64,000 nt of DNA, from contig CM060733.1 in assembly GCA_030704615.1 (NCBI GenBank), positions 18,414,001-18,478,000 of the forward strand. The letters are read 5' to 3'. A model generated the notes under the pieces. The model was given only the letters and a program-made list of their open reading frames with translations. It was not told the DNA's origin and did not search any database. This document shows, in pieces, positions 8,380-49,402 of the stretch. The DNA is from Takakia lepidozioides. Lineage: Eukaryota; Plantae; Bryophyta. A program made the position numbers and the translations under genes. The first letter of the stretch is position 1, and the number at the start of each line of letters is the position of its first letter.

Positions 8380-8712
8380 GTAGGCTGTGTTGAGCTGTGA
8401 CAGGCTGTGTCATACTGTGGTACGCTGTGTAGACTCTGTGTGATGTGGTGATAGGCTGTGTGGCACTGTGGTAAGCTGTGTAGGCTGGACACGCGGGTGG
8501 TAGGTTGTGATAGGCTGTATTGCGCCGTGCTGGGCTATGATAGGTTGGTTGCACCGTGATGGGCTGGGATAGGTGTGTGTCGCGCTTTGTATGTGATGGG
8601 CTGTGATAGGCTTTGTGTCGCGCCGGATGGGCTGTGATAGGTATGTGTCGCGCCTGATGGGCTGGGATAGGTGGTATGTCGCGCCATGATGGGCTTTGTG
8701 ATTAGGCTGTGT
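8380..8712. repeat. Degenerate GCTGTG / gggctgtgatagg tandem repeat
   Basis: Same core motif as 3762-3967, with ~30-bp higher-order units at 8590-8710. Confidence 0.75.
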
Positions 8713-8834
8713 CGCTCTTGTTCGGTCCGCCCTGGTCTAGATGCTCGGCCTAGCGACAAGTGCTCCATACTCCGTTGGTATCACTGTCGCACGCCCGTGA
8801 CTGCTTTTGCGTTTCAACATGCAAAATCAGCTGA

Positions 8835-9334
8835 NNNNNNNNNNNNNNNNNNNNNNNNNNNNNNNNNNNNNNNNNNNNNNNNNNNNNNNNNNNNNNNNNN
8901 NNNNNNNNNNNNNNNNNNNNNNNNNNNNNNNNNNNNNNNNNNNNNNNNNNNNNNNNNNNNNNNNNNNNNNNNNNNNNNNNNNNNNNNNNNNNNNNNNNNN
9001 NNNNNNNNNNNNNNNNNNNNNNNNNNNNNNNNNNNNNNNNNNNNNNNNNNNNNNNNNNNNNNNNNNNNNNNNNNNNNNNNNNNNNNNNNNNNNNNNNNNN
9101 NNNNNNNNNNNNNNNNNNNNNNNNNNNNNNNNNNNNNNNNNNNNNNNNNNNNNNNNNNNNNNNNNNNNNNNNNNNNNNNNNNNNNNNNNNNNNNNNNNNN
9201 NNNNNNNNNNNNNNNNNNNNNNNNNNNNNNNNNNNNNNNNNNNNNNNNNNNNNNNNNNNNNNNNNNNNNNNNNNNNNNNNNNNNNNNNNNNNNNNNNNNN
9301 NNNNNNNNNNNNNNNNNNNNNNNNNNNNNNNNNN
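8835..9334. other. Assembly gap (500 N)
   Basis: Run of N; ORFs spanning it are artefacts. Confidence 1.
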
Positions 9335-10179
9335 ATATCATCAAAGCTGGACGGGCAAGTTGAAGCTCATGCAAATGCAGCCCTATAGACTATACGTTTG
9401 AACATGTTATTAGCTTCGATTGTGAAATGGATTGATTTTATTTATCTAGATGCATTAATCCACCATTAAATTATAACGTTATAATGTAACATTCTTAAAG
9501 GCAATGTCTAATTATATTCGAAGTATTTGATAGCCTATGTTTGTGACATACATACAGACATAATTTTTTTTAAAGAAATATTGAATAAAAACTAGGTTGT
9601 GCCAACAATGTTGGTGGCGCCACTAACAAAGGAGGTTACGGAGCGCGTGAGCATGCTCACATGAGCACAAGTGCATATTCCCCAAATTTCCACGAAATTT
9701 CCACAGCGAAACGAAATTGGCGAAACTAAGAATTTTGCGAAACTAACACATTAAGAACAAGTAGCCCCTATACCTGATGAACATGTTACCCTATAAGCGT
9801 GGTTTTTTCTCATATTGTGCTCACACGATACCAGACCCTTTTCATAACAGGCAGGAGAGTGGGCAGGGAGGCCTAACCTTAAATTTAAGATCATCACCCA
9901 TGGATAATTTCGCACGGCGAAACTCTGTACCAACCAGCCTGAGAAGAAATCACACTGTAGCTGAAAAGATGCATATGTCACTTTCAAAGGCCCTACCATG
10001 TATATTTTTGCAAAGCAAAACTCTCTCCCCTAACAACTAGTATAATTACATATTGAAATATGCATTTGCAATGCGAAACTCTGATCCCGAAAGAGAGGAA
10101 GTTGGGTAGCGTGCAGTTTGGATGCTCACAAACATGAAAAAATATGACAAATATTTTTGAGATGCCCAGAGAAATCGCA

Positions 10180-11891
10180 CATATTTTGAACAAATACACT
10201 GTCACACAAGAGTTTCGTAATGAAAAACTCTTTTGTTACGACAAAGCAGTTCAAATCCCTCAATTGATATCTCTTAATATTGGTTCAACAACATGCCAAT
10301 TTTTGAACAAAAACAATATCAGACATGAGTTTCTTGTTAAGAAACTCTTTTGTTACAGGAAATCAATTCAATTCCCTCGATTCATATCCCTCCATATTGT
10401 CTCAAAAGCATGCTTGTTTTTTAACAGATACACTATCAGACAAAAGTTTCATGTTGAAATTTATTACGGCCAACCAGTTCAAATCCCTCCAAAAACACTT
10501 TCAGACAAGAGTTTTGAGTTAAGTAAATGATGCAGATTTTTGAACAAAACCCTTGTCAGACAAGAGTTTCGTGTTGAGAAACTCTTGTGCTACGGTAGAT
10601 GAGTTCAAATCCCTTAGTTCATATCCCTCCATATTGGTTCAAAAGTATGTAGGTTTTTGAACAAAATCAATGTCACATGTAGTTTCGTGTTGAGAAACTT
10701 TTTTGTCACGGCAAAGAGTTCAAATCCCTCAATTCATATCCCTCCATATTTATTCAAAATGATGTAGTTTTTTTTAACACAATCACTGTCAGACTAGAGT
10801 TTCGTGTTGAGAAACTCTTTTGTTATGGTGTAGCAATTCAAATCCCTCAGTCCATATCCCTCCATATTGGTTGAAAACCATGCAGGTTTTTTAATAAAAA
10901 AACTGTCAGAGAAGAGTTTCGTGTTGAGAAACTCTTTGTTATGGCGAAGTAATTCAAATCCCTCAGTCCATATCCCTCCATATTGGTTCAAAAGCATGCA
11001 CATTTTTGAACAAAAACACTATCAGAGAAGCGTTTCGTGTTGAGAAACTTTTTCGTCAAGGCGAAAGAGTCCCTCAGTCCATATCTCTCCATATTGGTTC
11101 AAAAGCATGCAGGTTTTTGAACAAAAACACTGTCAGAGAAGAGTTTCGTGTTGAGAAACTCTTTTGTTATGGCAAAATAATTCAAATCCCTCAGTCCATA
11201 TCACTCCATACTGGTTAAAAAACATGCACGTTTTTTAACAAAAACACTGTCAGAAAAGAGTTTCGTGTTGAGAAACTCTTTTATTATGGCGACGCAATTC
11301 AAATCCCTCAGTCCATATCCCTCCATATTGGTTCCAAAGCATGCAGGTTTTTGAACAAAAGCACTATGAGAGAAGAGTTTCGTGTTGAGAAACTCTTTTG
11401 TTATGGCGATGCAATTCAAATCCCTCACTCCGTTTATCTCCATATTGGTTCAAAAGCATGCAGGTTTTGAACAAAAACACTGTCAGAAAAGAGTTTCGTG
11501 TTGAGAAACTTCTGTGCAGACAAATAAGTTCACATCCCTCAGTCCATATCCCTCCATATTGGTTCAAAAGCATGCAATCTTTGTGCATGCTTTTGAACCA
11601 AAACAATGTTAGACGAGAGTTTCGTGTTGAGAAACTCTTTTGTCAAGGCTAAAGAGTTCAAATCCCTCAATTAGTATCCCTCCTTATTGTTCCACATGCA
11701 TGCAGGTTTTTAAACAAAAACACTATTAGAGAAGAGTTTCGTGTTTTGCTACGTTGAACTAGCATTTCATATCACTGAGTTCATATCTCTCCCTATTGGT
11801 TCTAAAGCATACAGATTCGTAAACCATAACACTGTCAGACAAGAGTTTTGTGTTGAGAAACCCTTTTTTTTATGGCAAAGGAGTTCAAATC
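10180..11891. repeat. Tandem satellite, ~117-118 bp monomer, about 15-16 copies (left part)
   Basis: Monomer aaaaacactgtcagagaagagtttcgtgttgagaaactcttttgttatggc...ttcaaatccctcagtccatatccctccatattggttcaaaagcatgcaggtttttgaac; gagtttcgtgttgagaaactc or variants recur at ~10210, 10327, 10564, 10680, 10797, 10914, 11141, 11259, 11376, 11491, 11617, 11843. Confidence 0.95.
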
Positions 11892-12609
11892 TGTCGCGGC
11901 CCTTTGCCTTGAGGGCAAGGGGTCGGGACGCAGAGGGGCTGCCCCTGTGGTGGGGGCGGTGGCAGCAATAGGTACGGGGGGCTGAAGCACCCTTGAGTGC
12001 CCAAGGCACTCAAGGAGGCGGAGACGCTCACTAGGTGGAGCCCCGCACACCGAGTTGCGGTGGGGGTGGCTCCACAAGGGGTGGAGGTAGCTTAGTGGGA
12101 CTTAGTAGGGGTGGCATAGGACTCACCATGGGGCGGAGATCTTGTGGTGGGAGTCGTGGGGAGTCTTGGGACTCACCACGGTCCAATAGGGCCATGGTGG
12201 GTGGGCCAAGACTCACCGCGACTCATCACCGGGAATCGAGGGTCTTCGTGGTGGTTCGCCATAAAATGGCATGGTTGTTTGTGAAACCCCCGCGGACAGT
12301 CACATAAGTATATATAGGGAGTAGTAACCCCGAGAACGGTGTAAGCCCGTTGGTGACCAAAAACTAGTGAGTAAGCGAGCGAGCCTGAATGCGACCAAGA
12401 AGTTGGGAGCTATTCCGGACTGCCATCTACCAAAGGGAATTTCCACTAGGCCGAAATTGGTGGAGGGTCTGTTGGGGGAAAAAAAAGGGACCGTTATGTC
12501 CCGTTGAGCAGCTGAAGCTCCGAGTTGGCCCGGCGGCCTGGTTGGGAGTTAGGCGCGCGCATCAAAGCGAGTAATTGAAGGAGAGCTTACCGAAGTGAGG
12601 TGCACGACA
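11892..12609 (+). repeat. Chromovirus 5' LTR
   Basis: tgtcgcggcc...tgcacgaca; matches 19189-19316 joined to 27883-28479. Confidence 0.95.
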
Positions 12610-12611
12610 CT

Positions 12612-12623
12612 TGATATCAGAGC
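12612..12623 (+). promoter_or_regulatory. Primer-binding site (tRNA-iMet type)
   Basis: tgatatcagagc, one mismatch to tggtatcagagc, 2 nt after the LTR end. Confidence 0.85.
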
Positions 12624-12664
12624 TTGGAGTTCAGTACGCGATCGTCCTTGGGATCGGCCTCATC

Positions 12665-15600
12665 ATGGGGTCGGGCAAGCCAAAGCGAAAGCGGAACGGC
12701 CCGAAAGATGATGATCTTGGTGAGTCCGATGGGGGTGACGTATCACCGAAGCGGCCATTTGAGGAAGCGATTCATGCTTTTGAAAGCAAGGCCACTCAAG
12801 AATGGGAGGAATCTGAGGAGTCGGAGCTCGAGGAATCCCTAAGAGCTCCGACAGATCATGCCAGCAGCCTTTTGGGAAGGGTTGTTGGCGCAGTTTGGCG
12901 GGACGTTGAAAGACGTGTTGAGGGCGGCTAATGCCACTTCCACTAAGGCAAAGTTTAAGGTGAAGCCTAAGGAACCCGACACCTTCGAGGGCGTCCGAAA
13001 TCAGAAGGCACTCAACACCTGGCACTTGGAGCTACAGCAGTACTTCCGAGCGGCCAAGTTGAGTGACGAGAATCGGGTGGAGGTGGCTCCCACCTATTTG
13101 AGGGGCTATGCTCAACAATGGTGGCAGAAATGCCTTCACGACCGAGGTCCAAACCCGGAAACCTTGAACTGGAGTGAGTTCAAGGAACTAATGAAGAGAT
13201 AGTTTGTGCCCCTCAACGCGTCCTAGCTCGCCCGAGACAAGATGAGGAATCTGAAACAAACGGATGACATTCGGGGATATGTTCAGGCTTTCAATGTGCT
13301 GTTGCTCGAAGTCGCGGACATGGCAGAACCAGAAATGGCCTTCAACTTTCTGGCGGAACTGACCCCATGGACCAGGCGGAAGTTGGAGGAGAAGCCACCT
13401 AAGACTTTGAACGAGGCAATTGAGAGGGCTGAATGTTTCTTGGATGTCCCTAGGGGCGAAAGACAAGGCCGTACGGAGCTGAACCACAAGAAGACCCGGC
13501 GGGAGGGTGACTCATTCCGACCGGAAAAAAAGTGGGATAGGCCACGCGGCGACAATGGCACGTGGAAATCGAAGGGAGGTCCTTCTCACGTCAAGGCGGC
13601 ACCCAGTGCTCTGAAAGGAAAATCAGGTGCGGCGGCTTATGGCGGACAGAAGGCGACCTTTGATGGGGTGTGTTTTAATTGCGGGGAGCCCGGGCACATG
13701 GCTAAGAAGTGCGCAAAACCCCGACAATTGAACATGACTCAGGCGACCACATAGCTGTCGGAAGATTCCAGGTGGAAGCGGTGGTCGCTAAGACTTGCAA
13801 GGTAGGCAACTACTCTTGTGAGTTGTATCAGGAAACTGGCGCCCTGCGTAAAGGGAGTCAATTATTGTTCGTAGATGGGATAATTTCCGGAACTAACGTG
13901 TTGTTGTTGGTGGACACATGAGCGTCGCACTCCTTCATGACACCGGCAATGGCACGAAAGCTGGGGCTCCCGACAAGTGACGTGGGGGCCTCTATTGAGG
14001 TGCGTTCTGCCAAAAGAGAACCACAATTGGCGACGAGGTTGGCGTTCGATGTTCATCTTCAACTGGAGAGTTGAGAGGGACGTGAGAACTTCACCATTTG
14101 CGAGATCGATGGAGTGGATCTCATTTTGGAGATGACCTTTTTCAGCAAATCCGGAGCGGTTATAGATGGCCGCAAGAGAGTAATCACGCTGCCGTGTGGG
14201 AATGGTGGCGAAATTTTACGAATGTAGGAAACGCCCAAACCCGTAGGAGGGCGAATAAACCTTCTATCAGTAAGGGAGTGGGCCGTGGAGGAGCCACACG
14301 AGCCCCAGTTTTTGCTTTACGTAAGACAAATGAAAGGAGAAGGCGATGGAGAGCCGAGCCCAGATTGGATCAAGGGGATCTTGGAGAAATACCAGGATGT
14401 GATGCCAGAGGATTTACCAAGCGGCCTGCCACCGCGACGGGGAGTTGACCACAAGATTGAGGTGATATCGGGATCGGAGCCGCCTGCCAAGACGCCCTAC
14501 CGGTTGAGCCACAGAGAGTTGGTCGAGCTGAAGACTCAGCTCAAGGATCTAATGTCAAAGGGGTATATCCGGCCAAGTAAGTCACCTTATGGAGCCCCGG
14601 TGCTATTCGCAGACAAGAAGGATGGGACGCTGCGAATATGTGTCGATTACAGGGCTCTGAATAAGGTGACTATAAAAACCGATACCTTTTGCCAAGGATC
14701 GACGACTTTTTCGATCGGTTGGCATGAGCGAAGTATTTTAGCCGGATCGATTTGCACTCCGGCTATCATCAAATTCGAGTGGCGGAAGGAGATGAGGAGA
14801 AGACCGCGTGCAGGACAAGATATGGTTCGTACGAGTTCTTGGTAATGCCTTTTGGGCTCACCAACGCACCCGTGACCTTTAGCACGCTAATGAACAGCCT
14901 TTTCCAGGAGTGGTTGGATGACTTTGTGATCGTGTACATCGACGACATCTTGGTGTACTCGAAAACAAATGAAGAGCACCTAAAAAGGGTGTTCCAGAAA
15001 TTGCGGGAAGGTAAGCTGTATGCCAAAGCTTCAAAGTGCGAATTCGGGGTTACAAAAGTGGAGTTCCTGGGGCATGTGATTACACATGATGGGATCAAAA
15101 TGGATGACAGAAAGGTGAGGGCGATCTTGGACTGGGAACCTCCGACTTTGGTCCCGGGAGTGCGATCCTTCCTAGGACTCGCCTCCTATTACCGGAAGTA
15201 TGTGAGAAATTTCGCCAAGATCTCGGGGTCGTTGTCAAACCTCCTGTGTAAATCCAAGGTCTGGGTATGGAACACCTTTTGTGGCCAAGCTTTTGCCGAG
15301 TTGAAGCAGCGGATGGCGGAAGCTCCAGTCCTCAAAATTCCGGAGTTCGACCGTCCATTTGAGATCCATACAGATGCGTCGGACTTTGCAATTGGGGTAT
15401 ACTCATGCAGGATGGACATCCAGTGGCTTACAAAAGTAAGAAATTGAATGAAGTGGAGCGACGGTGGCCTACGCACGAGAAAGAAATGAAGGCGGTGGTG
15501 CATTGCCTTGAGTTTTGGCGCCACTATATTGGTTCTAACCCGGTGAAGGTGTTCACGGACAATGTCACGGTGAAGTATTTTGCCACGCAGCCTAAGTTGT

Positions 15601-18270
15601 CCCCAAAACAAATTAGGTGGCAAGACACTTTGGCATTGTTCGACGTGGATATCCAGTACAAACCGAGACGAGACAATGTGGTGGCTGATGCTTTAAGTAG
15701 AAAGCAACAGCTCGTGTTGGTGTACAAGGGTGAGACGGCGCTCCAAAGGAAGATCCGGAAGGCTTCCGGAAGGATGAGATGGCGAATTCTGTGATGCGGG
15801 ACTTGAGGATAGGGGTTAAATCGCAATTTTACTTGCAAAATGGACTGCTCCGGTATAAGCAAAAGCATCTCTACGTGTCGAAGGGAGGGATCAAAGATAG
15901 CCTCTTGAGATAATGTCATGATGGCCCGCTTGCGGGCCACGACGGAGCCAAGCGCACCGCGACACTCTTAAAGAAAGAGTATTTCTGGCTCAAACTGAGG
16001 GAGGAGGCCGAGGAGTATGTGAAGACATGCACCACATGCCAACAAAACTGGAGCGAGTGTAAAAAGCAAGCGGGGCTGTTACAACCCTTGCCGATTCCAG
16101 AGGGGTCTTGGGAAAGTGTCTCGATGGATTTCATGACTGCTATGCCGCTGTCAAAAGGATTCGATGCAATCATGGTGGTGGTGGATAGGTCAGTAAAATG
16201 GACCATTTCATTCCCACCAAGAAGACGGCAACGGCGCAAGAGACGGTGCGACTTTACTTCGCCCACGTCTTCAAGCATCATGGACTCCCGAAGGATATTG
16301 TCTCGGACCGTGATCCAAAGTTTACAAGTAAATTTTGGAGGGCACTTTGGAAGAAGATGGGGACGAGGCTCAAGATAAGCACCGCCTTCCGACCTACGAC
16401 AGACGGCCAAACGGAAAGGGTGAATTCCGTGGTGAAGCAAATCTTACGGAATTACGTGTCGGTAGACCAATCGGACTGGGTGGAACACTTGGATGCAACA
16501 GAGTTCTGTTATAATAACACAAAACACTCCCCTGGGGGGTGCACTCTTTATAAAATGTCCGTATCACGTGCGTTCGCCGCCTAATAAAAAAACCCCATGT
16601 ATACGGGTCCTTGGATCATTTATACCCCCTCTGTACATACATTTTGAAGATTATAAAATCCCCTCCTGTAAATATATAGAAATTTATAATTTTAAAAAAG
16701 TACCCCCTGCTGTATGTATATTTCTTTTTTGAATCATTAAAAAATACCCTCAAATATGTATATGTATTTTTTTTATTATATCAAGTTTATTCATTTAAAA
16801 ACAGACCTCGGCCTGTATTACTATGTAGGTCCAAATTTTATGAAACCAAGTCGGTGCATCCCTACCCATTGAGGGCTTTCCAACGGTACCAAAATCGTGG
16901 CTAGAGGCCCTGCGGTTTGGGAGATCTCAAGGACCCTACAAACAATATTGTGTTCATGCCATATTTGAAAAAAAAAAACCCCCAATTATTTACATTTATG
17001 TCCCCGTGTACAAAGGATAAATAAATGGCCAGTAATTGTTGCAAGAAAGCCCATTTTGCTATTTTTCGCGAGTTTCCAACAACCAAAAGTACTTGAAATT
17101 TCATATCTCCCACATTGCAAGTTCCAAAATTATGAGACCAAGCCAGTGCACCCCTCCTCATGGAGGGCTTTCCAATGGTACCAAATACCAGGGCTGGGGC
17201 CCCGCGGTTGGGGAGATCTCAACAATGATACAAAACAAAATATTGTCTTTATTGTATATTACTGTTTAACATTAAAATTGTTTCAAGAACCGTGGACCAG
17301 CCTAGTGGTATGGAGTTGGTCGAGGTGTGTAGGTGGTCTTGGGCTCAAATCTACATTGTGATATATACATATTTTCAAAGTTTTCGAAAAATTCAAAACA
17401 CCATGAGATTTGAACCCACGATGAGAGTCGTGGCATTGGTAACCCTTACCACTACGCTGCCCTCCTAATCATGCTAAACCTTGCTGTAGACTTATATTTA
17501 AGGTGTTGCTTTACCCCCCTATGTATGTATAATGTTGTACATGGGGGGTTAAAAATATCCCCTCATGTGCACGTACGTGGCTGGTACAGGTTGGCTGGGG
17601 TGCACCTCTCGGGAACACTCCGCAACGGGAGTTTCCCCTTTCGTATTGGTCTATGGAAAAGCACCTCTGGTGCCGACAAGTTGGGCTGCCCAGGACGTTG
17701 AGGAACCGGCAGCAGCGGCGGTACTGGAAGAACGTGAGCGTTTGTTAAAGCTCGCAAAGTACAACATTGCTAAAGCTAGGAAACGGTATGAAATGCAGGC
17801 GAATCGGAAGCGGAGGGAAGTTAAGTTTGAGGCAGGCACGGAGGTCTGGTTGAACATCAAGAATTTCCGACTACCTCCGGAAGTGAGTCCGAAGTTCGTA
17901 CCTCCGTATGCGGGACCCTTTCATATCCGGATGATTATGAATGAGGATGTGTATGAATTGGAGCTGCCGGCAAACAGCAAGGTGCATCCAGTATTCCACG
18001 TCTCTCTTTTGAAGTCTTACTTCAAAGATGAAGTGCGTCCGAATCGGCATCAAGTGTTGCGTCCGCCACCTGTGCTGTTGGACCATGAAAATGAACATGA
18101 GTATGAGGTGGAGGTAGTGCTTAAGTCGAGGAGGTTCAAGAATCGAGAAATGGAGTATCTCGTGAAATGGAATGGACTATAATCATGTAGAGGCATCTTG
18201 GGTGCGTGCCTCAGAAATAAGAAACGCATCCGAGGCTGTTGCAGCTTTCGAAGGGCGACCTCAAAAGTGA
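12665..18270 (+). pseudogene. Chromovirus gag-pol (gag with CCHC, protease, RT, RNase H, integrase, chromodomain), with multiple stops and frameshifts
   Basis: CFNCGEPGHMAKKC knuckle; LLVDT*ASHSF protease; MPFGLTNAP and YIDD (~14935) RT; [10 protein letters not shown]...NVVADALSR RNase H; HD..LAGH/CTTC and SMDF...SDRDPKF...DGQTER integrase; YEVEVVL...YLVKWNG / YNHVEASW...AVAAFE chromodomain (frameshifted, stop at 18270). Confidence 0.95.
16531..17613. mobile_element. Non-autonomous DNA transposon (MITE) inserted in the chromovirus integrase; 8-bp TSD, possibly hAT-type
   Basis: TSD aacactcc (16523-16530 / 17614-17621); imperfect 14-bp TIRs cctggggggtgcac / gtgcacctctcggg; removal restores integrase NTKHSATG; AT-rich non-coding interior. 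Confidence 0.85.
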
Positions 18271-19188
18271 AAGAAGCGTTGATGGGGACATCAACCTTGG
18301 AGCGTGGGGGGAGGAAATGCTTGCTTAGCCCGGCTTAGCTAAGCTCAGGAACCCGATTGCAAAAACTTGTATTGTACAAATTTTGTTATAAATTAAATGG
18401 TTCCCAAATGTTGTGCGTCCTATTTTGTTTGGAATGGTGATGCATGGTTTGTTTGGCTAGTGTGTAGAATGCATGCTAGCTTACAAAGTGGTAGAGGTAA
18501 ATTGGATTAATTGTGTGTTTGCATAGTGCCGAAATCGAATGACTCCCATCCAAGAGGCAAGGAAACTTGCGCCTTCTTTGGGAGTTCACGTGCTAGTGCG
18601 CACCTGGCGCGTGCGCGTACTATAACTACGCTACCGAGGGGGTTGCCTTGTAGTGCAGGCTAACGTGGAAGCTACGTGCTTCTGTTCACGTACTATAATC
18701 GTGTAGCCTCAGGACGAAGTTGTAGTGCGGCTTTGGCGTGTTCCCTTACCTCAGGCCAGCATTCTAAGGCGGACCCAATTGTAGTGATTGGGGCGCACGG
18801 TTAGTTCAAGGTTATCTTCCTAGTAAAAAAGGGTTCAAGGTGAACCTTTGCTCAAGGTGATGCCAAAAGCGGCACCACGAGCGGTCGCAAGCAATGTTGT
18901 TGCAGTAAGACGATTCGATCCTTGAGGAGGATCGTTCCTTGGCCTTGAAGTGGGCCAAGAAGAGTGCACTGGGAGGAGCTTGAGAGGCTCCACCCTTGGC
19001 CGGGACTTGGAGGAAGTTGGCCGAACTAGCTAGTGGAGAGTAGAGTCAAGTGTGGGGTTTGGTTCTTTGCCATGGGACGCCATGGTGCGGAAACAAACTC
19101 CTTGATGTGGGACGCCACAACTTGGTTGTTCGTTTCTACAAAATAGACAAGTCGATGAGGACATCGACTCCCTGTTGGTAGGGGTGTG

Positions 19189-19316
19189 TGTCCCGGCCCT
19201 TTGCCTTGAGGGCAGGGGGTCGGGACGCAGAAGGGCTGCCCCTGTGGTGGGGGCGGTGGCAGCAATAGGTACGGGGTGCTGAAGCACCCTTGAGTGCCCA
19301 AGGCACTCAAGGAGGC
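19189..19316 (+). repeat. Chromovirus 3' LTR, left part (interrupted)
   Basis: tgtcccggccctttgcc... matches the 5' LTR start; preceded by a gtcgatgaggacatcgac hairpin and a G-rich tract. Confidence 0.95.
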
Positions 19317-21119
19317 TGTCAAGTTATTTTACCACTGGTGTGAAGTTAGCTAGTTAGATGACATGATCAGCTCCAAGTATTTCTGCCCGAAATCAGTTGT
19401 TGCGGGTAGATGAGGAGCAGCCGAATGGTGGAGCTGCAAGGAGATGCATTGCAGCCCGTTGAGAGCTTCAGCTCCAAGCTCATGAAGAGGTATGAGTGAA
19501 GAGAGGGGGCTGGTCCCTCTTGTGTGCAAATCAGTGCACTTGTGAAACATGTGCTGAGTTGGAGTTTCAATCTGAAACTCAGTAGTGTAAGGGCTCTTGG
19601 AGTGGCAAGAACGGGGCTGGAAGGGCAGCAACGAGGCGCCCTAGAGCCAAGGGAGATGCATGAGAAATGCAGGTGCACCAAGTTTGTAAAGAAGCCATAG
19701 CTCGTCGGCAGCAGGTGCAAGAGCAAACCCCAGCTCGGGAACGCGTGGGAACGCCGGGAACGTCTCGGGAACGCATGGGAACTCGTTGGGAGTTCCAGGG
19801 ATCGCAAGGAATAGTGGTCGTGATGGTCCGTTGGGGCGGTATCATGAGATACCACGAGCCCAGGTTGTGATGGTTGACCGTTGACCGTGACCGTTGGAAG
19901 TCGTGGTGCGGATACAACGGGTGGGCACGGTGACCAGATCGTGGGGATGGCGGGCCGTGAAGGCTTGTGGGAGTGGTACCACGGGGTATCACTGGGCAGC
20001 CCGTGGCCAACGAGTGCCTAGGGCGGGCCGTGAGGAGTCGTGGCGGTTGGAGCCACGGAAGGCCGCGAACAGTTAGAGTGAAAAAAAAATAAAAATAAAA
20101 AATAAATAAAATCTTTTTTCACTCGTTTCGTGGGACCTTGATGGGGAGGCTGGGCTCTGAAGAACAACGGTTTTGAGCTAGCTGATCCGGCAGAAAAGTC
20201 GGAATTGCCTCCCTGCTGCGTCTTAACAAAGGGGATTACTTCCATGCAGGTAATCTTTTCGGGTTTTCGCCCAATTCTTAACTATGGGGAAGACCAGCCT
20301 GCAAGTAATTCCTTTGGACAGAATGTTGTTGGGGCCTATATGTACCTCTATTTGCTCCATTTTTGAACCTTCAGTGAACGGTGTCGTTTCCTGAGGTAAT
20401 TCCATTCGGAGGAATGACTGGTGGACGTAAGGAGGCACTGGCGGACCCTGTGGAGGCTTGCATGGGGCCTTGGAGGCCAAGTTTCATGAGCTCGTGGAGG
20501 GCGGTTTGAGGAGTGTCTACAGGATGCTCTCATGGTCATGCAAGTGAGAGAAGAGAGGAAAAAAGAGGGTGTTGGGATGAGAGCGTGCTTGGGATAGGCA
20601 TTGCTTTAGCTTCTCTTCCTCGTAGTTTTTCACCTTCTCTGTAGGCCGAGACCTTTTTGTAGGTGGAGACAAAAGTCAGTCCGGGTTTGGGCTGGGTTGC
20701 AGGAGCGACACTGTGGAGTTATTTTTGGTGTTGGGGGAGTTGTTGTTTTCATTCTTGTGTTTGGATCCCCTCCACAACTGCATGCTTGATTGTGCGCCAT
20801 GCTAGTTTTGTGTGGGCGCTTGATTTTATAGGTGGTGGACTCGGGCTTGATCGCCGATCCCACCCTAGAGCATGTTGTCGATGGTGAGGCTGGGGTGATG
20901 ACCAGTCAGACCATCTTTGTTTCTCCTGTGGTGAGGTTGGAGGTGATGACCAGCCAACCATAGGAGTGTCTGCGGTGGATGCAGGTACAGGTGCAGGCTA
21001 TGTTAGGAACCTAGTATTCCAAACCATAAGCCGCATCAGGTTCTCTACCCGGTTACCTTGTGGAGAGGGGATTAGAGACATGTTCATGACCGGTTGAGTG
21101 TCAGTTTGTCAACACGGAG

Positions 21120-22560
21120 GTGCCACTAGTTGATGGGGAAAGTGCCGGTACGAACACTAGCGATACTAGCGGGTATACGAGACGAGGTGTGCGGTTTAGG
21201 CCACCTTCACCTCCTGTGTCTTCTACGGAAGGTTATGATTCGGATTATGAATCAGGAAGACCACACCGGCGGTGCAAGTTGTTTCCTTGCCATTGTTGTG
21301 GGACACGATGGAGGAGATGTATGGAGCCACCAAGGGGCCACGAAGGTATTCTGGGGCGGTGAGCACCATTGAGTTGGATGATTTTATCCAAGATTTTGAT
21401 AGTTGGCGTGACTTGCAGCAAATGCGCAATCCACAACTGTTTACGCCTTTCATGGCATGGAAGGGGCTGTTTCAGTACCTTAAGGGGCCGCCCATGGACG
21501 ATTACCATGAGTTTAGGCGGGGGCACGATGTTGAGATCGAGGAGTGGAGGATGTATTGGTCACCTGACTATGTCTCCATCACTAGAGGCACTAGAGGCAC
21601 AAGGGCAGCAGCCACACCGGCAGTTGCACCAGCAGCTACAACAACAGCTTCCACGAGCAGTAGTGGGACTAGTGGTACAACAACTATGACGGCCACCCAA
21701 GCTACTGCTGCACCCAGCACCAATGGCGGTGCCTGCCTTCAACCCTGTTGTGGAGTTCTTCGAAGACTTGAGAAGGAACTACCAAAGGGTGAGGATAGAG
21801 AAGTTGAGGAGCTTGCAAGAGTTCCAACGGAAGCCTACTGAGAGCTTGAGGGAGGCTTTCACTCGCATGAGGCGCTTGATTAATGTAACCCAAGGGGTTA
21901 CGGAGGCTCAGGCAGTCCAATTCTAGTACGGGATATTGGACAAGGAGCTGAAGAGAAGGGTGCGGGATGCAACTCTCCTACAAGTGGCCCAACCCACCTT
22001 AGCAAATGTGTTTTTGCTGGCAGAGCGGATAGAGCTCAACATGGTGGAGGAACGAGTGGTCATGGTGGGATTTGCTAAGGAGGCACGTAGTGGTGCTCCT
22101 AGCCAGCCACTACCTCAACGTGCTCAAGGCAGCAAAGGGGCTCAGGTGAAGCCCATGGAAGGGCAGAGAGGACCTCAGATGCAGGGGTCTCTCCCTTCAT
22201 TTGCTGGCCAACAACGGGCGGATGTGGTGTGCTGGACATGTGGAGGACCTCATGTCAAGAAGGATTGCCCAAAGGGAGACAATGGTTTGGCACCAGCACA
22301 ACCTGCACAGGTGCAGTGTGGGCATTGTGGCAGGTACGGGCATGGAGAGGCCCAGTGCTATGGTTTGCACCCTGAGTTGCGCTCATGCCAGTTCCAAGGG
22401 AACAATGGTGGCCGGGGGTGAGGTGGAGCAGCCCAGAGAGGACGAGGTGGCCAGGCATGAGGTGCAGGCCAAGGGCAGGCTCAACATGACCAAGGACGCG
22501 GAGATCAGGGTGGTGATCAAGGCATGGCCAACCGGCTTCAGCAGCTAGAGCAGAGGCTCG
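21120..22560 (+). pseudogene. gag of the DNMT-bearing element
   Basis: ELDDFIQDFDSW...LQEFQRKPTESLREAFTRMRRL; zinc knuckles CWTCGGPHVKKDC and CGHCGRYGHGEAQC; frameshifted. Confidence 0.85.
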
Positions 22561-23329
22561 CTGCCATGGCCACAGCTCAGGTGGTACCGGCTCCAAGGCT
22601 GGATGGTCCACCTTCTGCTCCCGAGGGAGGAGACTTAGGAGGCATGGGATTCATGTGCGGGGCAACTCTACCACTAGTGAGGGGTGCCACTACCACTACC
22701 ACTATGGGTGGGGCACCACTACCACTAGTGTCGGGCAACACTACCACTACCACTACCACTATGTGCGGGGGGCAGCATTACCACTAGTGCAAGTGGACTC
22801 AGCTGCGGCAGTGACTTAAGAAGCAGCACGAGTTCCTGAGCCACAGGGTGCAGAGGTGGAGTTGGATCCACATCGTGGGGAGGCAAGCCGTCAGGCCAAG
22901 CTTCCTCAGTCATTCACATTGGCGGAGACAGTGTCGACGCCGTCCATGGCACCTAGTTCTCGCCCGACTGTTACCGAGGCGGAGGTTATTATGCCATTGG
23001 GGAGAGTTACACGGGCAGCACCACTACCTAGTGTTGCCAAGGCTACGACAGCTAGTGTGCTGCTGGGGGCGGCCACAGCTGTGTGCCAGGCTCCATTGTT
23101 CTCGGCTACCATGATTGCGACGCTGGGGGTAAGACCAACTGAGGTGTTCAGGCTGGCAGCAACACTCTGTGAGAGTGAGGAGGTTACTTCATCTTCTGCG
23201 GAGATAGTGGGAGGTGTAGTGCCGGAGGGATCCTCAGATGTGAGGGTCAAGACTGCCACGGCAGCGCCATGGCAAGCTGCAGCTATCAGGTTGATGGAGC
23301 TGTCAGCTAGGCCAGCCATTGAGTGCGCC

Positions 23330-23790
23330 ATGGTGACACCTGGAGTTGTCATGTTAGACCACCAGGATGGCATTTTCTGTTTGAGTGGACCGGCAGGCAA
23401 GAGGTACCACTGCGGTCTTGTTGGACCGAGCTCAGCCATTGACTCGGGAGCTCAGCCATTGATGTTGGGCTACTATGCAGCCTCACGGAGGCGGATATGG
23501 AGCCGTGCCCTTTCCAGATACAGACATCTCTGGGAGGATCAGAGTAGGCTCGGGGCATGATACGGCGTGAGTTGGCTATCAGACTACAGCTGGATCATCC
23601 TACAGATGGCTCAGTGATGAGAGCCAAGGCCATTGTGACAGACGCGGTCTCGTACAATGTTCTTGTTGGTGGGGCAGTGTTGTACCCCATGGGCTTCACC
23701 CTGGATTTTTGGGAGGAGTTAGCTTCCTATAGGCCTGGATGGCAGTCAGGGGAAGGCTGGCGTGTGCAGCTCCCTATGACATTCATAGGA
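23330..23790 (+). pseudogene. Retropepsin-type aspartic protease of the DNMT-bearing element
   Basis: IDSGAQPLMLG active-site motif at ~23440; downstream YNVLVGG motif. Confidence 0.75.
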
Positions 23791-23894
23791 GGAGTTGCGG
23801 TTGCCCAGCGAGGCAAGATGCCAACACTGGCAGTATTCATAGCTGTAGCGACTTGGCCTGGAGAGTTGTTGGATGACAACACTCATTCAGAGGA

Positions 23895-24155
23895 TTGCCC
23901 ATTAGTGGCACATTCTCCAAGATGTATGCTGGAGATACAACTTGATGAAGCTGTAAGTGGCGCAAAACCCGCACCATCTTCCAAACCAGACCCGACCTCG
24001 AGTCTCGCAATCCATTGCCATGCCCGGCTGATAAATGCCCTTGGCAGGGCCAACCTGCCACTACCAAATCAATGGAGCCAACCCGCTCCAAATCCTGCGC
24101 CCCCAGCAACGAAATGTCTCCTGGCAAGGCCTGCTGATATCCACAAACTACAGAC
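23895..24155 (-). pseudogene. C5-cytosine DNA methyltransferase catalytic core (motifs IV and VI), locally inverted
   Basis: ORF 23837-24184(-): GDISLLGAQDLERVGSIDLVVAGWPCQGHLSAGHGNGLRDSRSGLVWKMVRVL...PAYILENVP, matching the canonical D(L/I)xxGGxPCQxxS.AG...G..D.R..L and ENV motifs. Confidence 0.9.
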
Positions 24156-24430
24156 AAACAAGGTGGGTCGACCACAAGCAGCACTACCTACACTGCTCAG
24201 CTTCCCAGGATCGCATGCTTTCCGGGATAGCGGACCTGGCCTCCTATGGGATGCTCAGTTGTAGCAGTTAGTGGAGCCTAATGCCGACGAGCAAGAGCGG
24301 ACTATGGGTTTTTCCATTGGGACCACGGCGGTGCCTTCTCTTTCTGAGGCATCACGTCGTCAGGTGTTGGGGCAAGCGATGGATCTAAATTGCTTGACCT
24401 GGATTATCAGCTTGGCTATGGCTGAGCAAC
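24155..24430 (+). pseudogene. C5-cytosine DNA methyltransferase C-terminal part (TRD tail, motifs IX and X)
   Basis: NKVGRPQAALPTLLSFPGSHAFRDSGPGLLWDAQL*QLVEPNADEQERTMGFSIGTT...LSEASRRQVLGQAMD matches E.ER.MGF (IX) and R..LG.A (X). Confidence 0.75.
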
Positions 24431-24894
24431 GTAGAGTGCGGAGTGCACTTCCCTTGACGGTCTCTCTGCCTACCGAGACGGTACAGGCAGTGAGTGGGGG
24501 CGAGCCGGTGAGGACCACGGAGTGTAGACATCCATGGCACACGTGGGAGGTGCTCGAGGTTCAAAGGGAGTTGGCAGCCAAGACGGCTGTGATGGATGAG
24601 GTGGGGATTCTTCTCGGGTTGAGGAGGTCCTCAAGGATGAGATGATGGGGCAGGATGAGGCCTTGTCATTGACTGAGCAGGCAGGGAGTACTGCTCAAGA
24701 GGTTGCGGCATAGCAACCACGGGACGCGTCCTCTACCTCTAAGTCTACTGGACTTAAGGTTGCAGTTACGAAGGGCAATTGGGAGCCTGACATTGGATCT
24801 ATTGTCACTAGAGGAGAGAGACGACGTATATGGGGGTTCCTGAGGCTTACAGGAATTGCTTTGCCTCTCGTGCTACGGTGGAGGAGCATGAGAG

Positions 24895-26260
24895 ACATGT
24901 TCAGGTTGTGCATCGACCAGGTTTGGTCAATAGGGATGCGGATGGATTGAGTCGCAATCCATGCACGAACCAGCAGGATGACTGTAGATGTAGTGTCTGA
25001 GGACCCTGAGGCTAGTGATGAGCCAGGTGGTGCCAGAGATATACATGAGGATTCGGTTGTGTTGGATTACCTCCGCACTGGAGACACGACAGCTAGTGTG
25101 ACTGCCAAGGAGAGGGATCGGATCTTACAACGAGCCAAGAGGTTCAAGTGGGAGGGGATACACCTGCTTCGAGTGTGGGAGGATGGTCGGGTGAGGATCG
25201 TGCCTCACCCAACACAGCGTGCACGGTTAGTGCGGCATGCCCATGAGGAGTTGGGGCATTTTGGAGTGCGACGCACTCATAGTTTACTGCAGGGGCAGTA
25301 TTGGTGGCGTGGTATGCACACAGAGGTACAACAGTTCGTGGCTAGGTGCATGGTGTGTGACAGGGTGCGTGCTTCATTCAACGCCCCTACACCACAGTTG
25401 CATCCTTTACCCATCATAGGATTGGGCTACAGGTGGAGTCTTGACTTCGTAGGGCCTTTGTCACTGACGATGCGTCACCACAGATATGTGTTGGTGATGG
25501 TGGAGCACTTCTCCAAGTGGATTGAGTTGGTTCCATTGCCTGACAAGGCTAGTGAGGGGGCTGCGTATGCATTCCTGGATCGTGTGCTTAGCCGATCCGG
25601 TGCTCCAGCTGAGGTACTCACGGACCAAGGGAGAGAGTTCTTGGGGGGGGGGGGGGGGGTTTCAGGCTTTGTGTGATAAAGCCTTAATAGACCACCGTAC
25701 CACTTCTCGGGATCATCTTGAGGCCGATGGCTTGGTAGAGAGAGTGGTGCAGACGGTGAAGAGGGTTTGCGCAAGTATGGCTTGCAAAAATGACACCTAG
25801 GAGATTGGGATCTTCAAGTACCTTGGCTAGCCATGGGCTACACGTTTAGCAAGCAAGCATCACTTGCCTCCTTCTCACCATATTTTCTTCTCTTTGGCCG
25901 AGAGCCAGATTTGCCTGCGTCTATTCACAGGGAGGCTGCAGTAGTCCTCAACCTTGATGATCCGGATGTGTGGACACAAGCATGTGCCCAGCGGGCAGAG
26001 TTATTCAAGAGGGTCATGCCTATGGTTTTTGAGAACCTTGCTATTGCCCAACACCGAGACACATTGAGGTATGCCACTATACGTGGAGGGGATATCGGCC
26101 AGGTGTTCGGCGTTTCCACCCTGGAGACTATGTGTATCTGCAGCAAACAACGCCTACGACCTTGGATGTCACAGCAGGACGTGTGATTCTAAGGGTCAGG
26201 GAGGTGTTGCCTTCAGGAGTGTTAATTCTGGAGGGTCGAGATGGCATGGTATGAAAGGAC
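24895..26260 (+). pseudogene. RNase H tail and integrase of the DNMT-bearing element
   Basis: FQVVHRPGLVNRDADGLSRNP; HEELGHFG...CMVC zinc finger; WSLDF, LTDQGREF and DGLVER DDE core; frameshift at poly-G ~25650. Confidence 0.92.
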
Positions 26261-26263
26261 CAT

Positions 26264-26491
26264 GTGCGTAATTGTGCGACATGTCACCATCCACATGTGG
26301 ATGGGAGGATAGATCCCAACCTTGCAGTGGTACCTGCAGGGTTGCGTTGCATGCTATGTGGGTATGCTCGTGGTGTCACCACTATGCTGGTGTGTGATCG
26401 ATGCTCAAGAGGTTGGCACATGGGATGCTTGACACCACCTCTTGAGAGGGTTCCTGATGGAGATTGGTTATGTCCACCCTGCTTGGGATAG
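26264..26491 (+). CDS. PHD finger at the integrase C-terminus
   Basis: CMLC-x10-CDRC-x4-HMGC-LTPPL..VPDGDWLCPPC gives an intact C4HC3 PHD. Confidence 0.9.
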   Translation: MRNCATCHHPHVDGRIDPNLAVVPAGLRCMLCGYARGVTTMLVCDRCSRGWHMGCLTPPLERVPDGDWLCPPCLG

Positions 26492-26751
26492 TGGCAGTGG
26501 ATATGACTAGTGACAGCTCACAAGACATGGGAGGCCAAGCTCATAGGAGTCAATACCCAAGATCTTAGGCTCAAGTTCACAGGTTGCAAGACGGTGACTA
26601 ACGATGGGGCAACTCTTGTACCCGGCCTCTTGATCTATTGAGTTTGAGTGTAGTAGGGACAATGCTGGAGGACCTAGTGAGGCTATGGCCACTATCACAT
26701 CTTATGGCTACCTAGACTTAGAGGGACCTAAGCGCCAGCTAGGGGGGCGAT

Positions 26752-27148
26752 TGTGATGGACTAGTGGCAGCCTAGTGATGGACTAGTGGCTGCACTAGTG
26801 GTGGCTAGTGGCAGCCTAGTGGTGGACTAGCGGCTGCACTAGTGGTGGCTAGTGGCAGTCTAGTGGTTGGACTAGTGGCTGCACTAGTGGTGGCTAGTGG
26901 CAGCCTAGTGGTTGGACTAGTGGTTGCACTAGTGGTGGGTAGTGACAGCCTTGTGGTTGGACTAGTGGCTGCACTAGTGGTGGCTAGTGGCAGCCTAGTG
27001 GTGGACTAGTGGCTGCACTAGTGGTGACTAGTGGCAGCCTAGTGGTGCACTAGTGGTGGACTAGTGATAGACTAGTGTTTGGTGTGCATATATGTTGTGT
27101 GGTTTTGGACAGCGATGTAGTTGTGTAACAATATGTATGCGCACGACA
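26752..27148 (+). repeat. Partial 3' LTR lacking its first ~318 bp, with a CTAGTGG tandem array
   Basis: Follows the PPT; matches 27469-27878; ends gcgcacgaca. Confidence 0.85.
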
Positions 27149-27150
27149 GC

Positions 27151-27878
27151 TGTCAAGTTATTTTACCACTGGTGTGAAGTTAGCTAGGAAATAGCTAGCT
27201 TTTATATATTGATATTTGGGATTGACCCAAGTGTCAATCCAGGGGCCAATACATGTTTGGGCACCTGACGTTGTTATCTTCATGGCAGATCGCGGTGGGC
27301 TCATCTTTCTCGAGTTGAGCCTCATCGCGTCTAGCTATGGCGCCGTAGTGTGGATTCCCCATGGCGTGGGGTGCACTTGGCTTGACTTAAGATATGAGTG
27401 ATGTTTTCATGTGCGAGTGTGTGAGTTTGAGAGAGCTTGTATGCTTGTATCATTCCTTTTCTTATCATTGTGATGGACTAGTGGCAGCCTAGTAATGGAC
27501 TAGTGGCTGCACTAGTGGTGGCTAGTGACAGCCTAGTGGTGGACTAGCGGTTGCACTAGTGGTGGCTAGTAGCAGCCTAGTGGTTGGACTAGTGGCTGCA
27601 CTAGTGGTGGCTAGTGGCAGCCTAGTGGTTGGACTAGTGGCTGCACTAGTGGTGGACTAGTGGCTGCACTAGTGGTGGCTAGTGGCAGCCTAGTGGTGGA
27701 CAAGTGGCTACACTAGTGGTGACTAGTGGTTGCACTAGTGGTGACTAGTGGTTGTCTAGCGGCAGCCTAGTGGTGCACTAGTGTTGGACTAGTGATAGAC
27801 TAGTGTTTGGTGTGCACATATGTTGTGTGGTTTTGGATAGCGATATGTAGTTGTGTAGCGATATGTATGCGCACGGCA
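27151..27878 (+). repeat. Complete LTR of the DNMT-bearing family, with TATA-like ttttatata and a ~44-bp CTAGTGG-based tandem array
   Basis: tgtcaagtta...gcgcacggca; homologous to the solo LTR at 29754-30075. Confidence 0.9.
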
Positions 27879-27882
27879 AGGC

Positions 27883-28479
27883 GGAGGCGCTCACTAGGTG
27901 GAGCCCCGCACACCGAGTTGCGGTGGGGGTGGCTCCACAAGGGGTGGAGGTAGCTTAGTGGGACTTAGTGGGGATGGCATAGGACTCACCATGGGGCAGA
28001 GACCTTGTGGTGGGAGTCGTGGGGAGTCTTGGGACTCACCACGGTCCAATGGGGCCGTGGTGGGTGGGCCAAGACTCACCGCGACTTATCACCGGGAATC
28101 AAGGGTCTTCGTGGTGGTTCGCCATAAAATAGCATGGTTGTTTGTGAAACCCCCGCGGACAGTCACAAAAGTATATATAGGGAGTAGTAACCCCGAGAAC
28201 GGTGCAAGCCCGTTGGTGACCAAAATCTAGTGAGTAAGCAAGCGAGCCGGAAAGCGACCAAGAAGTGGGGAGCTTTTCCGGACTGCCATCTACCAAAGGG
28301 AATTTCCACTAGGCCAAAATTGGTGGAGGGTCTGTTGGGGGAAAAAAAAAGGACCGTTATGTCCCGGTGAGCAGCCGAAGCTCCGAGTTGGCCTGGCGGC
28401 CAGGTTGGGAGTTAGGCGCGCACATCAAAGCGAGTAACTATGACTTGAAGGGGAGCTTACCGAAGTGAGGTGCGCGACA
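27883..28479 (+). repeat. Chromovirus 3' LTR, right part
   Basis: Continues the 5' LTR sequence from ggag(a/g)cgctcactagg to tgcgcgaca. Confidence 0.95.
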
Positions 28480-28700
28480 AAATCCCTCAGTCCGTATCCC
28501 TCCATATTGTTTCAAAAGTATGCAGGTTTTTGTACACAACCACAGTCGGATAAGAGTTTCATGTCGAAAAACTCTTTTGTTACGGCGAAGTATTTCAAAA
28601 AATTTAGTTCACATCCCTCCATATTTGTTCAAGAGCATGTAGTGCTCTGAACAATTCACTAACAGACAAGAGTTTCGTGTTGAGAAACCTTTTTCAATCT
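28480..28700. repeat. Continuation of the ~118-bp satellite (about 2 copies)
   Basis: Resumes in register at aaatccctcagtccgtatccctccatattg after the TSD. Confidence 0.9.
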
Positions 28701-28984
28701 TTGAATTCATTACTAAGAATTGTCGACATTGATGTTATCAAAGCGAAACAATCTCAGACCTTTTCAGATTCTGTTCTAAAATTCACGGCACAAGAAAGAA
28801 TATCTTGGTTTTATTGATAATCTAAATGACAGATGTACATGTTAACTCTGTTCCTAAAGAAAATTTCAGTAAGCGATCCACTTTATTGAGTTTACATTAT
28901 GCCACGATCGATACCCCAATGTTTCAATCGTAGAAAAGCGACAAAATACGCCTCACTCATTCTTGTAATTCGCCACTCTGGGCA

Positions 28985-30660
28985 CTATTGCCACCAACAC
29001 ACATACTACCGATCCTAGACTTCACAACATCCTCTCATCTGAAATTCCCACCTCAACAATGCATATATACAGATGGCTCCCTCGAAGAGGCGCAAGCAAC
29101 GTATGGAACTTACTGCATTAAAGATAACTTGAGGTCATACAAAAGACTCCCAAGACGCCAAAGTATCACAGGCGTAGAACTCATGGTTATCCATGATGCC
29201 ATAAAAATCTACCTATTTACGAACAGTTTGGTATCTGTCTACCTCACCAATAAAATCCTCTAAACCTATTATACAAATACACTATCCAAATCTAAACCTT
29301 ATTAAAGCAATCATTGAAGTTACTTCATCCCTCATGCTACAAATCCATATATATAAAGTTCGCTCCTATTCACACATATTAGGATGTGACATTGCGGGCC
29401 AGATGGCTCAGCTCGGCTCCATGCAACCTTCTGTAAATCCTCCCTATTCACTTAGCACACGCATATCCATCTGGCTCGTCTCAACTACGGTGAGATTATC
29501 ACACCTATACGGGATCTAGAAACATATGCACAAAAGAAACCAAATAATGAATCCAAGTACCCCGCACCGACACAAATTCATGCATATCAAAATGAATATC
29601 TTCCCCACACCTAATGCATGTCATGTCCAACCACTTTTGGACATCTCCTATAATTACTCATGCCCAAATCAGAGAACCACTACGATTCTGAGACAGCCAA
29701 CATGGGTAATAAAAAAAAGAAACCTATTTTGGCCATTATTATAGCATTGCACATGTCAAGTTAATTTGCTAGTAGTGTGAAACTGGCTAATAAATAAATA
29801 GTTTCTATATATTGACACTTGGGCTTGATTTAAGTGTCAACCCAGGGGTCAAGAGATTTGTTGGCCCCTGGGCGTGGTTTATCTCCACGACAGATGGCAA
29901 TGATGAGGCTTAACTCTCTCGAGTTGAGCCTCCCGCGTCGGCTATGGCGCGCGTAGTGCCGATTCCCCATAGCTTTTGGGGTGTGCTTAGCTTGACTCGT
30001 AATTTATAAGTGATGGTGTTTAGTTTTTGGTTTGGATAGCGATGTAGTTGTGCAGCGTTACATATGCACACGACACACATTATGCCATGCACAACCCCCA
30101 AAGTAGACACATGGCCATACCTACATCTCTATTGTAAGCACCCCATACTTCATGGATTACATATAACCAAACATAACCAATGAGTTTGGCATATTCAAAA
30201 ACTTCTTCTAGCACATCTTAAATCCAGCTGGCTTAATCTCATCAATGTAGGCACGTTTTAACCACCATGGCTTCTACCCTGCACATGTCTCTATTCCGTT
30301 GTCTAGCAAGGTTATGCCCTGATATTCTACTTATCCATGGACTACCTTTTTCGTCAACAATACCAACAAGTCCACATCCTTACCTCACCGTTCATGTAAT
30401 AGAATCTGCATTTTGTCAAGATAGAGACCCTAACCAATCAATTATGTATAAACGTGAAAAATATGAACCACTCATTTTAGCCCTTTGTCACCATGGATGG
30501 AACACCGCCCCTTTGACTATCATTACCGCCGGTAGAGGGGGAGTACATTGCCACAACACTCAAATTCTCAAAGAAAACCTCAAACTTTCGTTAAAATACA
30601 CCACCCTACTCCTAGCACCTTGCATTTCATAGCTATTACGTCACTTACAGCCTATTAGAG
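28985..30660 (+). mobile_element. Degenerate 3' part of a non-LTR retrotransposon with RNase H, CCHC knuckle and restriction-like endonuclease (RandI/Dualen-like)
   Basis: IYTDGS...ITGVELMVI...IYLFTNSL and HIYKVRSYSHILGCDIAGQMA (RNase H); C...DTWPYLHLYCKHP..HGLHITKHN (knuckle + RHN); CPDILL...HVIES...KREKYEPL (PD..E..K..KY RLE). Confidence 0.7.
29754..30075 (+). mobile_element. Solo LTR related to the DNMT-bearing family
   Basis: tgtcaagtta...gcacacgaca with 4-bp TSD caca (29750-29753 / 30076-30079); shares ctcgagttgagcctc, gattccccat and ggatagcgat..tagttgtg with 27151-27878 but lacks the CTAGTGG array. Confidence 0.9.
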
Positions 30661-49400: not shown

Positions 49401-49402
49401 TT

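Follow-up and report, generated by a model that had tools for sequence, protein, structure and literature searches.

The window analysed here comprises 64,000 nucleotides of contig CM060733.1 of Takakia lepidozioides (Bryophyta). At 19317-27878 it holds a dead, rearranged copy of a Ty3/gypsy retrotransposon family that carries its own C5-cytosine DNA methyltransferase (MTase). Such retrotransposons are known from Klebsormidium and dinoflagellates; here they are shown in bryophytes, a finding that does not extend to tracheophytes. We propose, with a probability of roughly 0.6, that the family encodes Gag, protease and MTase ahead of a leaky stop and reverse transcriptase (RT), RNase H (RH), integrase and a PHD finger behind it, and that intact copies use the enzyme within the particle to methylate CpG of their own cDNA.

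The element, its methyltransferase and its relatives

How much of the element survives in the window? In a protein alignment it is collinear with Mp4g09160 (P0005) of Marchantia, with gag, protease and MTase in that order. The gag region (21308-22577, plus strand), with two zinc-knuckle-like motifs, stops and a frame change, matches this protein at 72% and 52% identity; its Pfam score (PF03732, E 4e-4) stays below the cut-off. The linker and aspartic protease (22790-23901, plus strand; DSG at 23441-23449) lie in a broken frame, with 43% identity over the protease region, for which relatives give weak matches to PF13650. The MTase comes next, in two pieces. Residues 938-1024 of Mp4g09160 are inverted, at 72% identity, in a 263-bp fragment on the minus strand (23894-24156) that carries motif IV (AGWPCQG) and motif VI (YILENVP), while residues 1111-1243 run forward at 65%. 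The C-terminal part of the domain (24157-24462, plus strand) holds motifs IX and X (24265-24400) and one premature stop. Residues ~800-937, with motif I, and 1025-1110, with motif VIII, are missing, so that deletions flank the inversion on both sides. The second frame begins with short remnants of RT and of the RNase H end (24714-24982, plus strand), most of both domains being deleted. The integrase (25002-26254, plus strand) keeps its HHCC zinc finger, DDE core and C-terminal part, frameshifted (Pfam H2C2 1e-16, rve 2e-10), and ends in a PHD finger (26348-26482, plus strand; PF00628, E 8.5e-11).

The original prediction, made from the sequence alone, placed C5-MTase motifs IV, VI, IX and X in this element and called the copy dead for lack of motifs I and VIII and of RT. 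The motifs are real: once the inverted piece is re-oriented, its stop-to-stop frame (23840-24187, minus strand) matches PF00145 with E 1.9e-10, at 41 bits against a cut-off of 22. All four are in the sequence, IV and VI inverted on the minus strand and IX and X on the plus strand. The copy is indeed dead, motifs I and VIII, which its relatives possess, having been deleted; RT, on the other hand, is not wholly missing, as the remnants attest. That gag, integrase and a polypurine tract (PPT) fall within one element is borne out by the Mp4g09160 alignment for gag, by Pfam for integrase and by a tract at 26741-26747.

What kind of MTase is this? The best sequence matches of relatives in the PDB are DNMT3A (1e-12) and then DNMT3B, with DRM2 at 1e-4 and HhaI at 7e-4. 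An AlphaFold2 model of the relative P0001 (pLDDT 93.8) has DNA-bound DNMT3A as its top fold match (E 1.6e-18, TM 0.84 by target; 20-23% identity in the fold alignments), and the motif order of the relatives is unpermuted, unlike that of DRM. By sequence likeness and by the predicted fold of its relatives, the domain is DNMT3-like. Among the alignment rows with a letter at the position, the catalytic Cys is present in 178 of 178, the Glu of ENV in 178 of 179 and the two Arg of motif VIII in 173 of 178 and 174 of 176; the FxG motif that binds S-adenosylmethionine is near-invariant, and motif IV reads EC instead of PC in 67 of 178 rows. The ratio of nonsynonymous to synonymous substitution rates (dN/dS) of the MTase is 0.095-0.164 in five pairs, similar to that of the protease, while the linker behind the MTase gives 0.36-0.54 in three. 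These ratios indicate that the MTase is under purifying selection.

A search with the inverted piece recovers 32 longer homologues, of which 24 are 65-72% identical; the named ones belong to Marchantia polymorpha, Sphagnum troendelagicum and Calypogeia fissa, to which look-ups add S. jensenii and S. fallax. The Sphagnum and Calypogeia proteins are shorter than the ~1,280-aa Gag-protease-MTase proteins of Marchantia. A profile search returned 306 representatives at E<=1e-30. We also examined 80 metagenome loci (numbered L), the best 80 of 120, picked on their MTase and often on contigs that end early; protease was found in 63, RT in 62, RNase H in 48, integrase in 38 and PHD in 31. Public runs that contain the window element cover its MTase and integrase parts alike; in run X1, 12,427 contigs fall on 1.27 kb. 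Such coverage points to a high-copy family, although summed contig depth is not a copy number, and X1 may be the run from which the window itself derives.

In a FastTree phylogeny of 181 MTase rows (19 were left out, among them five Marchantia and Sphagnum models that fuse MTase with RT, and near-duplicates), a clade of 29 members (support 1.00) unites the two window fragments with the proteins of Marchantia, Sphagnum and Calypogeia; its sister comprises 21 unnamed sequences of the same layout. In 81 of the 181 rows, more distant and including the green alga Cymbomonas, the MTase is labelled between RNase H and integrase. MTase and RT distances are correlated (rho 0.64, n=54, 0/500 permutations). 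By these comparisons the MTase is a trait of the family across liverworts, mosses and further hosts. The predicted existence of a land-plant Ty3/gypsy family with its own C5-MTase between protease and RT is thus upheld by collinear relatives; Marchantia, Sphagnum, Calypogeia and the metagenome loci keep the MTase at the same position, and its intronless state and common layout set the pieces apart from an intron-containing host DNMT gene.

Dozens of unnamed polyproteins of up to 3,456 aa (P0083-P0264) have the order RT-RH-MTase-integrase-PHD, and four Marchantia copies (P0060, P0061, P0062, P0065) bear Mp_Vg/Y names, which place them on the male sex chromosome. More diverged relatives stand beside the main copies in L057 (1698-4546, minus strand; MTase-RT-RH-integrase) and L033 (14739-16598; RH-integrase-PHD), so that at least two lineages occur in one host. 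A second copy in the window itself, represented by its protease region, is clipped by the window edge (4-564, minus strand). Word-based scans gave one distant match among viral contigs (34%, L081) and one match among prokaryote genomes (L082); they point to no recent donor among bacteria or viruses. L082, assembled as a circle and filed in a cyanobacterial genome bin, is most likely a eukaryotic contaminant, because it is itself a complete element of the family (1-9285).

Reading frames, split repeats and a proposed replication route

Where does the first frame end? In five Marchantia proteins (1,278-1,281 aa) the C-terminus lies 72 aa past the MTase, and with fifteen unnamed proteins of 1,228-1,451 aa (P0232-P0246) the range is 72-138 residues. 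MTase and RT share a frame in 44 of the 58 loci with adjacent anchors. In L070, open frames of 1,369 and 1,047 codons are parted by a single TAG; L069 and L082 likewise have two long open frames with a single TAG at the MTase/RT junction. Where Marchantia and Sphagnum models join MTase to RT in a single protein, we regarded them as predictions that had probably been spliced over, except for P0011 (which has no linker), P0029 and those of P0030 type. We conclude that the MTase closes the Gag-protease frame and that one in-frame stop precedes RT-RH-integrase-PHD. The earlier description of the MTase as lying inside the polyprotein therefore has to be revised: it ends the Gag frame, upstream of the conserved stop at 24711-24713, and is outside Pol.

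The sequence of the stop and its context is TAG CAA CCA in the window (24711-24719, plus strand) and L030, TAG CAA TCA in L069 and L082, and TAG CAG TTA in L070 and L072. TAG-CAR-YYA is thus kept across six elements although the linker varies in length and sequence, and elements with this stop form one clade of the RT tree (0.99, six rows). UAG-CAR-YYA is the readthrough signal of tobacco mosaic virus (PMC3542737). No RNA structure was found behind the stop in five sequences (z +0.2 to -1.0), Rfam gave no match at E<=1 over 19000-30200, and a literature search found nothing that links CARYYA readthrough to retrotransposons. We regard TAG-CAR-YYA as a likely leaky stop. Protease and MTase would then be made as often as capsid, and RT and integrase rarely, by occasional readthrough; the position of the stop implies that the element invests in its MTase at capsid level.

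The ends of the element are equally unusual. It had been described as a retrotransposon with long terminal repeats (LTRs) bounded by a target-site duplication (TSD). The 4-bp TSD AGGC (19313-19316 and 27879-27882, plus strand) is confirmed by the other LTR (11892-12437) of the older element into which this one inserted, where the site is empty, and the hallmarks of Ty3/gypsy are present, namely the order PR (protease)-RT-RH-integrase, though with most of RT and RH deleted in the window, an HHCC/DDE integrase, TG..CA ends, a PPT and the 4-bp TSD itself. What the copy has, however, is split repeats and no matching LTR pair. Its order, all on the plus strand, is A1, coding region, PPT, B1, GC, A2, B2. 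Repeat A1 (19317-19353), with the TG end, matches A2 at 100% over its 37 bp. It is followed by a 5' non-coding region (19354-21307) whose first ~1.2 kb contains no self-priming pair. Within it, 19354-20530 stands in place of most of A1 at a summed contig depth ~1/10 to 1/30 of that of the coding region, and is either a subfamily-specific end or a later rearrangement. The PPT (26741-26747), a motif shared with Sphagnum-type loci, L070 and L082, lies immediately 5' of B1 (26750-27148), which contains a 45-bp tandem array and ends in CACGACA. A 2-bp spacer (27149-27150) then forms an internal CA-GC-TG junction, the candidate integrase cut site, with A2 (27151-27467; 76% to a solo copy at 29754). 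B2 (27467-27878; 90% to B1) supplies the CA end of the element. The solo copy is an A-B remnant of a related element (29754-30075, plus strand) with its own 4-bp TSD, CACA.

The order A-coding-PPT-B-NN-A-B, with both ends visible, recurs in L040, L057, L059/L076 and L064, and the TSD is perfect in six of the eight loci examined. Twelve loci stop at B1, without a second A-B, and eight continue to NN-A; the PPT is always directly before B1. The B1|A2 junction reads CACGACA-NN-TGTCA in the window, in Sphagnum-type loci and in L069, L070 and L082. Ends permuted in this way suggest that integration follows an unusual path, and tools that require an LTR pair would miss the family.

How might such an element be primed? 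A primer site of tRNA type does not follow A. Instead, a stretch of 13-17 bases behind A can pair with a site that lies ~160-175 nt inside A; this holds in two sequence families. The complements are perfect over 17 nt in L064 and 16 nt in L070 (maximum 12 in 300 shuffles each), and the 13-nt pair of L082 differs from that of L070 on both sides, a two-sided change. The A2|B2 junctions are mostly uniform, but L040 has filler there and L052/L053 retain bases of the primer site. The joined cDNA ends of retroviral circles provide a model for such variable A|B junctions: filler and primer-site bases are what joined ends would leave, and we infer an end-joining route. The reverse-transcribed unit, and true LTR, would be B-NN-A, the plus strand being started from the PPT and the minus strand by self-priming immediately behind A, as in Tf1. 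Joining of the cDNA ends would create the A|B junction, and integrase would cut the internal CA-NN-TG junction, so that the inserted copy begins and ends inside the B-NN-A unit.

Proposed function, its rivals and the genomic setting

What role might be played by an MTase made in this way? The protease would release it and it would be packed in the particle; its likeness to DNMT3 suggests CpG specificity. New copies would arrive pre-marked like old host repeats, which may be the benefit. We favour methylation of the cDNA because the MTase would be abundant in the particle and because DNMT3-type analogues of dinoflagellates methylate CG de novo. For the element, the observed/expected ratio of CpG (CpG o/e) is 0.46 (0.42-0.53); the host chromovirus has 0.86 (0.76-0.96). 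A fuller account, which we hold to be doubtful, is that of an ancient gypsy lineage of mosses and liverworts with an active CpG MTase made at capsid stoichiometry through the leaky stop, which would set 5-methylcytosine on its cDNA without the silencing machinery of the host, integrate by a route new to LTR elements, the cutting of the internal junction of self-primed, end-joined cDNA, and perhaps methylate host DNA too.

Several observations weigh against the proposal. The domain of the Klebsormidium element KnitGypsy-Dnmt3 gave no methylation in yeast, a result that its authors call inconclusive (PMC5890265). CpG o/e is 0.44 in another element of the window and 0.56 over the whole window; host methylation can therefore explain the depletion, and self-methylation is not singled out. 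In four of the five dN/dS pairs dS is near saturation. The stop of the Sphagnum-type family, TAG/TAA CAA CCC (39 + 13 = 52 matches), fits five of the six consensus positions, and the second frame might be reached by splicing or reinitiation instead of readthrough. The window copy has no self-priming pair, since its A1 is short, and only 5 of 21 Sphagnum-type loci exceed the shuffled maximum in a 15-nt test. Within elements, the identities of A1 to A2 and of B1 to B2 are not clearly above those between elements. Finally, among 23 upstream A repeats, at 20 distinct sites, not one has B in front of it. A symmetrical circle predicts copies of the form A-B-A-coding-B as well, and none was seen, so the route is incomplete and something unexplained selects one junction.

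Could the MTase act elsewhere than on cDNA in the particle? It might work after integration or in trans, methylating, together with integrase and PHD, the new copy, its flanks or other host chromatin. A PHD finger ends the integrase in 31 of the 80 loci and in distant relatives, and the label between RNase H and integrase in the 81 distant tree rows fits this too; here, however, the MTase belongs to the Gag frame and is parted from integrase by the stop, which suits bulk supply better than targeting, and we consider action of this kind unlikely. The MTase might also serve integration, the methylated CpG of the CACGACA end marking which of two identical junctions integrase cuts. The asymmetry of the upstream repeats needs some cause, split repeats and a DNMT co-occur in Klebsormidium as well, and CACGACA is kept in B1 of the window, in most Sphagnum-type loci and in L069, L070 and L082 despite CpG loss elsewhere. 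Recognition by integrase can by itself conserve this end, however, and several B ends have lost the CpG; the idea is a long shot.

Alternatively, the domain could be a non-catalytic part of the particle, structural or binding DNA or RNA, or an RNA methylase. The inactivity of its Klebsormidium counterpart in yeast would agree with this, as would production at Gag level like a structural protein; set against it, the Cys, the Glu, both Arg and FxG are near-invariant and the predicted fold is closest to DNA-bound DNMT3A, so that we judge such a role improbable. Capture of a host DNMT fragment by this one copy, or a chance motif match, might have been suspected from the inversion of the main fragment and the deletions on its flanks. 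It is refuted, to the point of having next to no chance, by the shared MTase position in liverworts, mosses and unnamed hosts, the lack of introns and a coverage of the MTase like that of integrase.

The insertion interrupted the 3' LTR of an older chromovirus, which gives RT, SH3 and chromodomain matches. This host element (11892-19316 and 27879-28479; gag, RT, integrase, SH3, chromodomain) has LTRs 94-97% alike, holds ~1.1 kb of other DNA within its integrase region and has a CpG o/e (0.86) that is high for the window; it splits an array of a ~117-bp repeat (10130-11870 and 28474-28694). Two copies of an element that carries gag and poly(A) runs (46700-52730 and 57900-64000), 99-100% identical and 11.27 kb apart, reflect either a recent duplication or an assembly artefact, and an RNase H remnant lies at 45731-46113 (minus strand). 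An intronless host gene (39136-39750) has no Pfam match and four homologues, the nearest named one from Sphagnum (53-54%). The exon at 44622-44730 (minus strand) presumably resembles plastid inositol monophosphatase/histidinol-phosphatase.

Comparison with known systems

Why retrotransposons carry cytosine methyltransferases has been a standing question since 2018, and the known hosts, dinoflagellates and Klebsormidium, are hard to work with. Marchantia polymorpha is a genetic model, and intact-looking first frames are annotated there as hypothetical proteins; gene models of this family can inflate DNMT counts. In the open literature we found no description of such elements in land plants (most subscription papers, and Repbase, fall outside that scope). 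Morozov et al. 2019 state that land plants such as tracheophytes lack them (PMC6338049); among the 96 genomes tabulated by de Mendoza et al. 2018 are Physcomitrella and Selaginella, while Marchantia and Sphagnum are absent (PMC5890265).

Tj1, Tosmo and Tcry1, along with Tf1, are described as likewise having an in-frame stop before the enzymes and self-priming instead of a tRNA site; they differ in that the stop is a TGA between Gag and protease, the LTRs form an ordinary pair and an MTase is absent (PMC4600332; bioRxiv 10.1101/2022.12.06.519325). Self-priming is described for Tf1, Tj1 and the moss Tcn1. Of the traits of Tf1/sushi-Tcn1 chromoviruses, the self-priming site occurs in L064, L070 and L082 but is lacking in the window copy, and the chromodomain after integrase is absent from the window and from L069/L070, a PHD finger taking its place. 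The stop of TMV type, with the same nine bases UAG-CAR-YYA in the window and five loci, is otherwise known from plant RNA viruses, as PMC3542737 presents it. Troyka, a gypsy-like element that also has unusual termini, was rejected as a relative: according to its description it has CG..CG ends, a 3-bp TSD and animal hosts only (PMC12440569), against TG..CA and 4 bp here.

DIRS, PAT and Ngaro elements were rejected as well, there being no Pfam match to a tyrosine recombinase in the window frames or in L069/L070. In circle integration of the IS3/IS30 type, a DDE enzyme acts on abutted ends with a 2-3 bp spacer; the CA-NN-TG junction of abutted ends may be analogous, although IS3 and IS30 are DNA transposons. 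Homologue searches returned no protein named after Klebsormidium, most relatives being unnamed.

SymbioDIRS-Dnmt3 and SymbioLINE-Dnmt are likewise reported as C5-MTases borne by retrotransposons, and the former combines split repeats with de novo CG methylation in yeast; both differ in relying on a tyrosine recombinase or LINE machinery, where the present family has a DDE integrase, and in their dinoflagellate hosts (PMC5890265). KnitGypsy-Dnmt3 of Klebsormidium nitens, a retrotransposon with a DNMT3-like domain (de Mendoza et al. 2018, PMC5890265), shares, by that account, the Gypsy domains, an intronless, unrearranged DNMT3-like domain and purifying selection. According to the legends of Fig. 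1e and 4c, it also shares DIRS-like repeats in the order A-coding-B-A-B. The PHD finger, self-priming and readthrough signal found here are not mentioned for it in the text of PMC5890265. As described there, the DNMT of KnitGypsy-Dnmt3 is part of the Pol frame, whereas here it ends the Gag frame before the stop, and does so in land-plant hosts.

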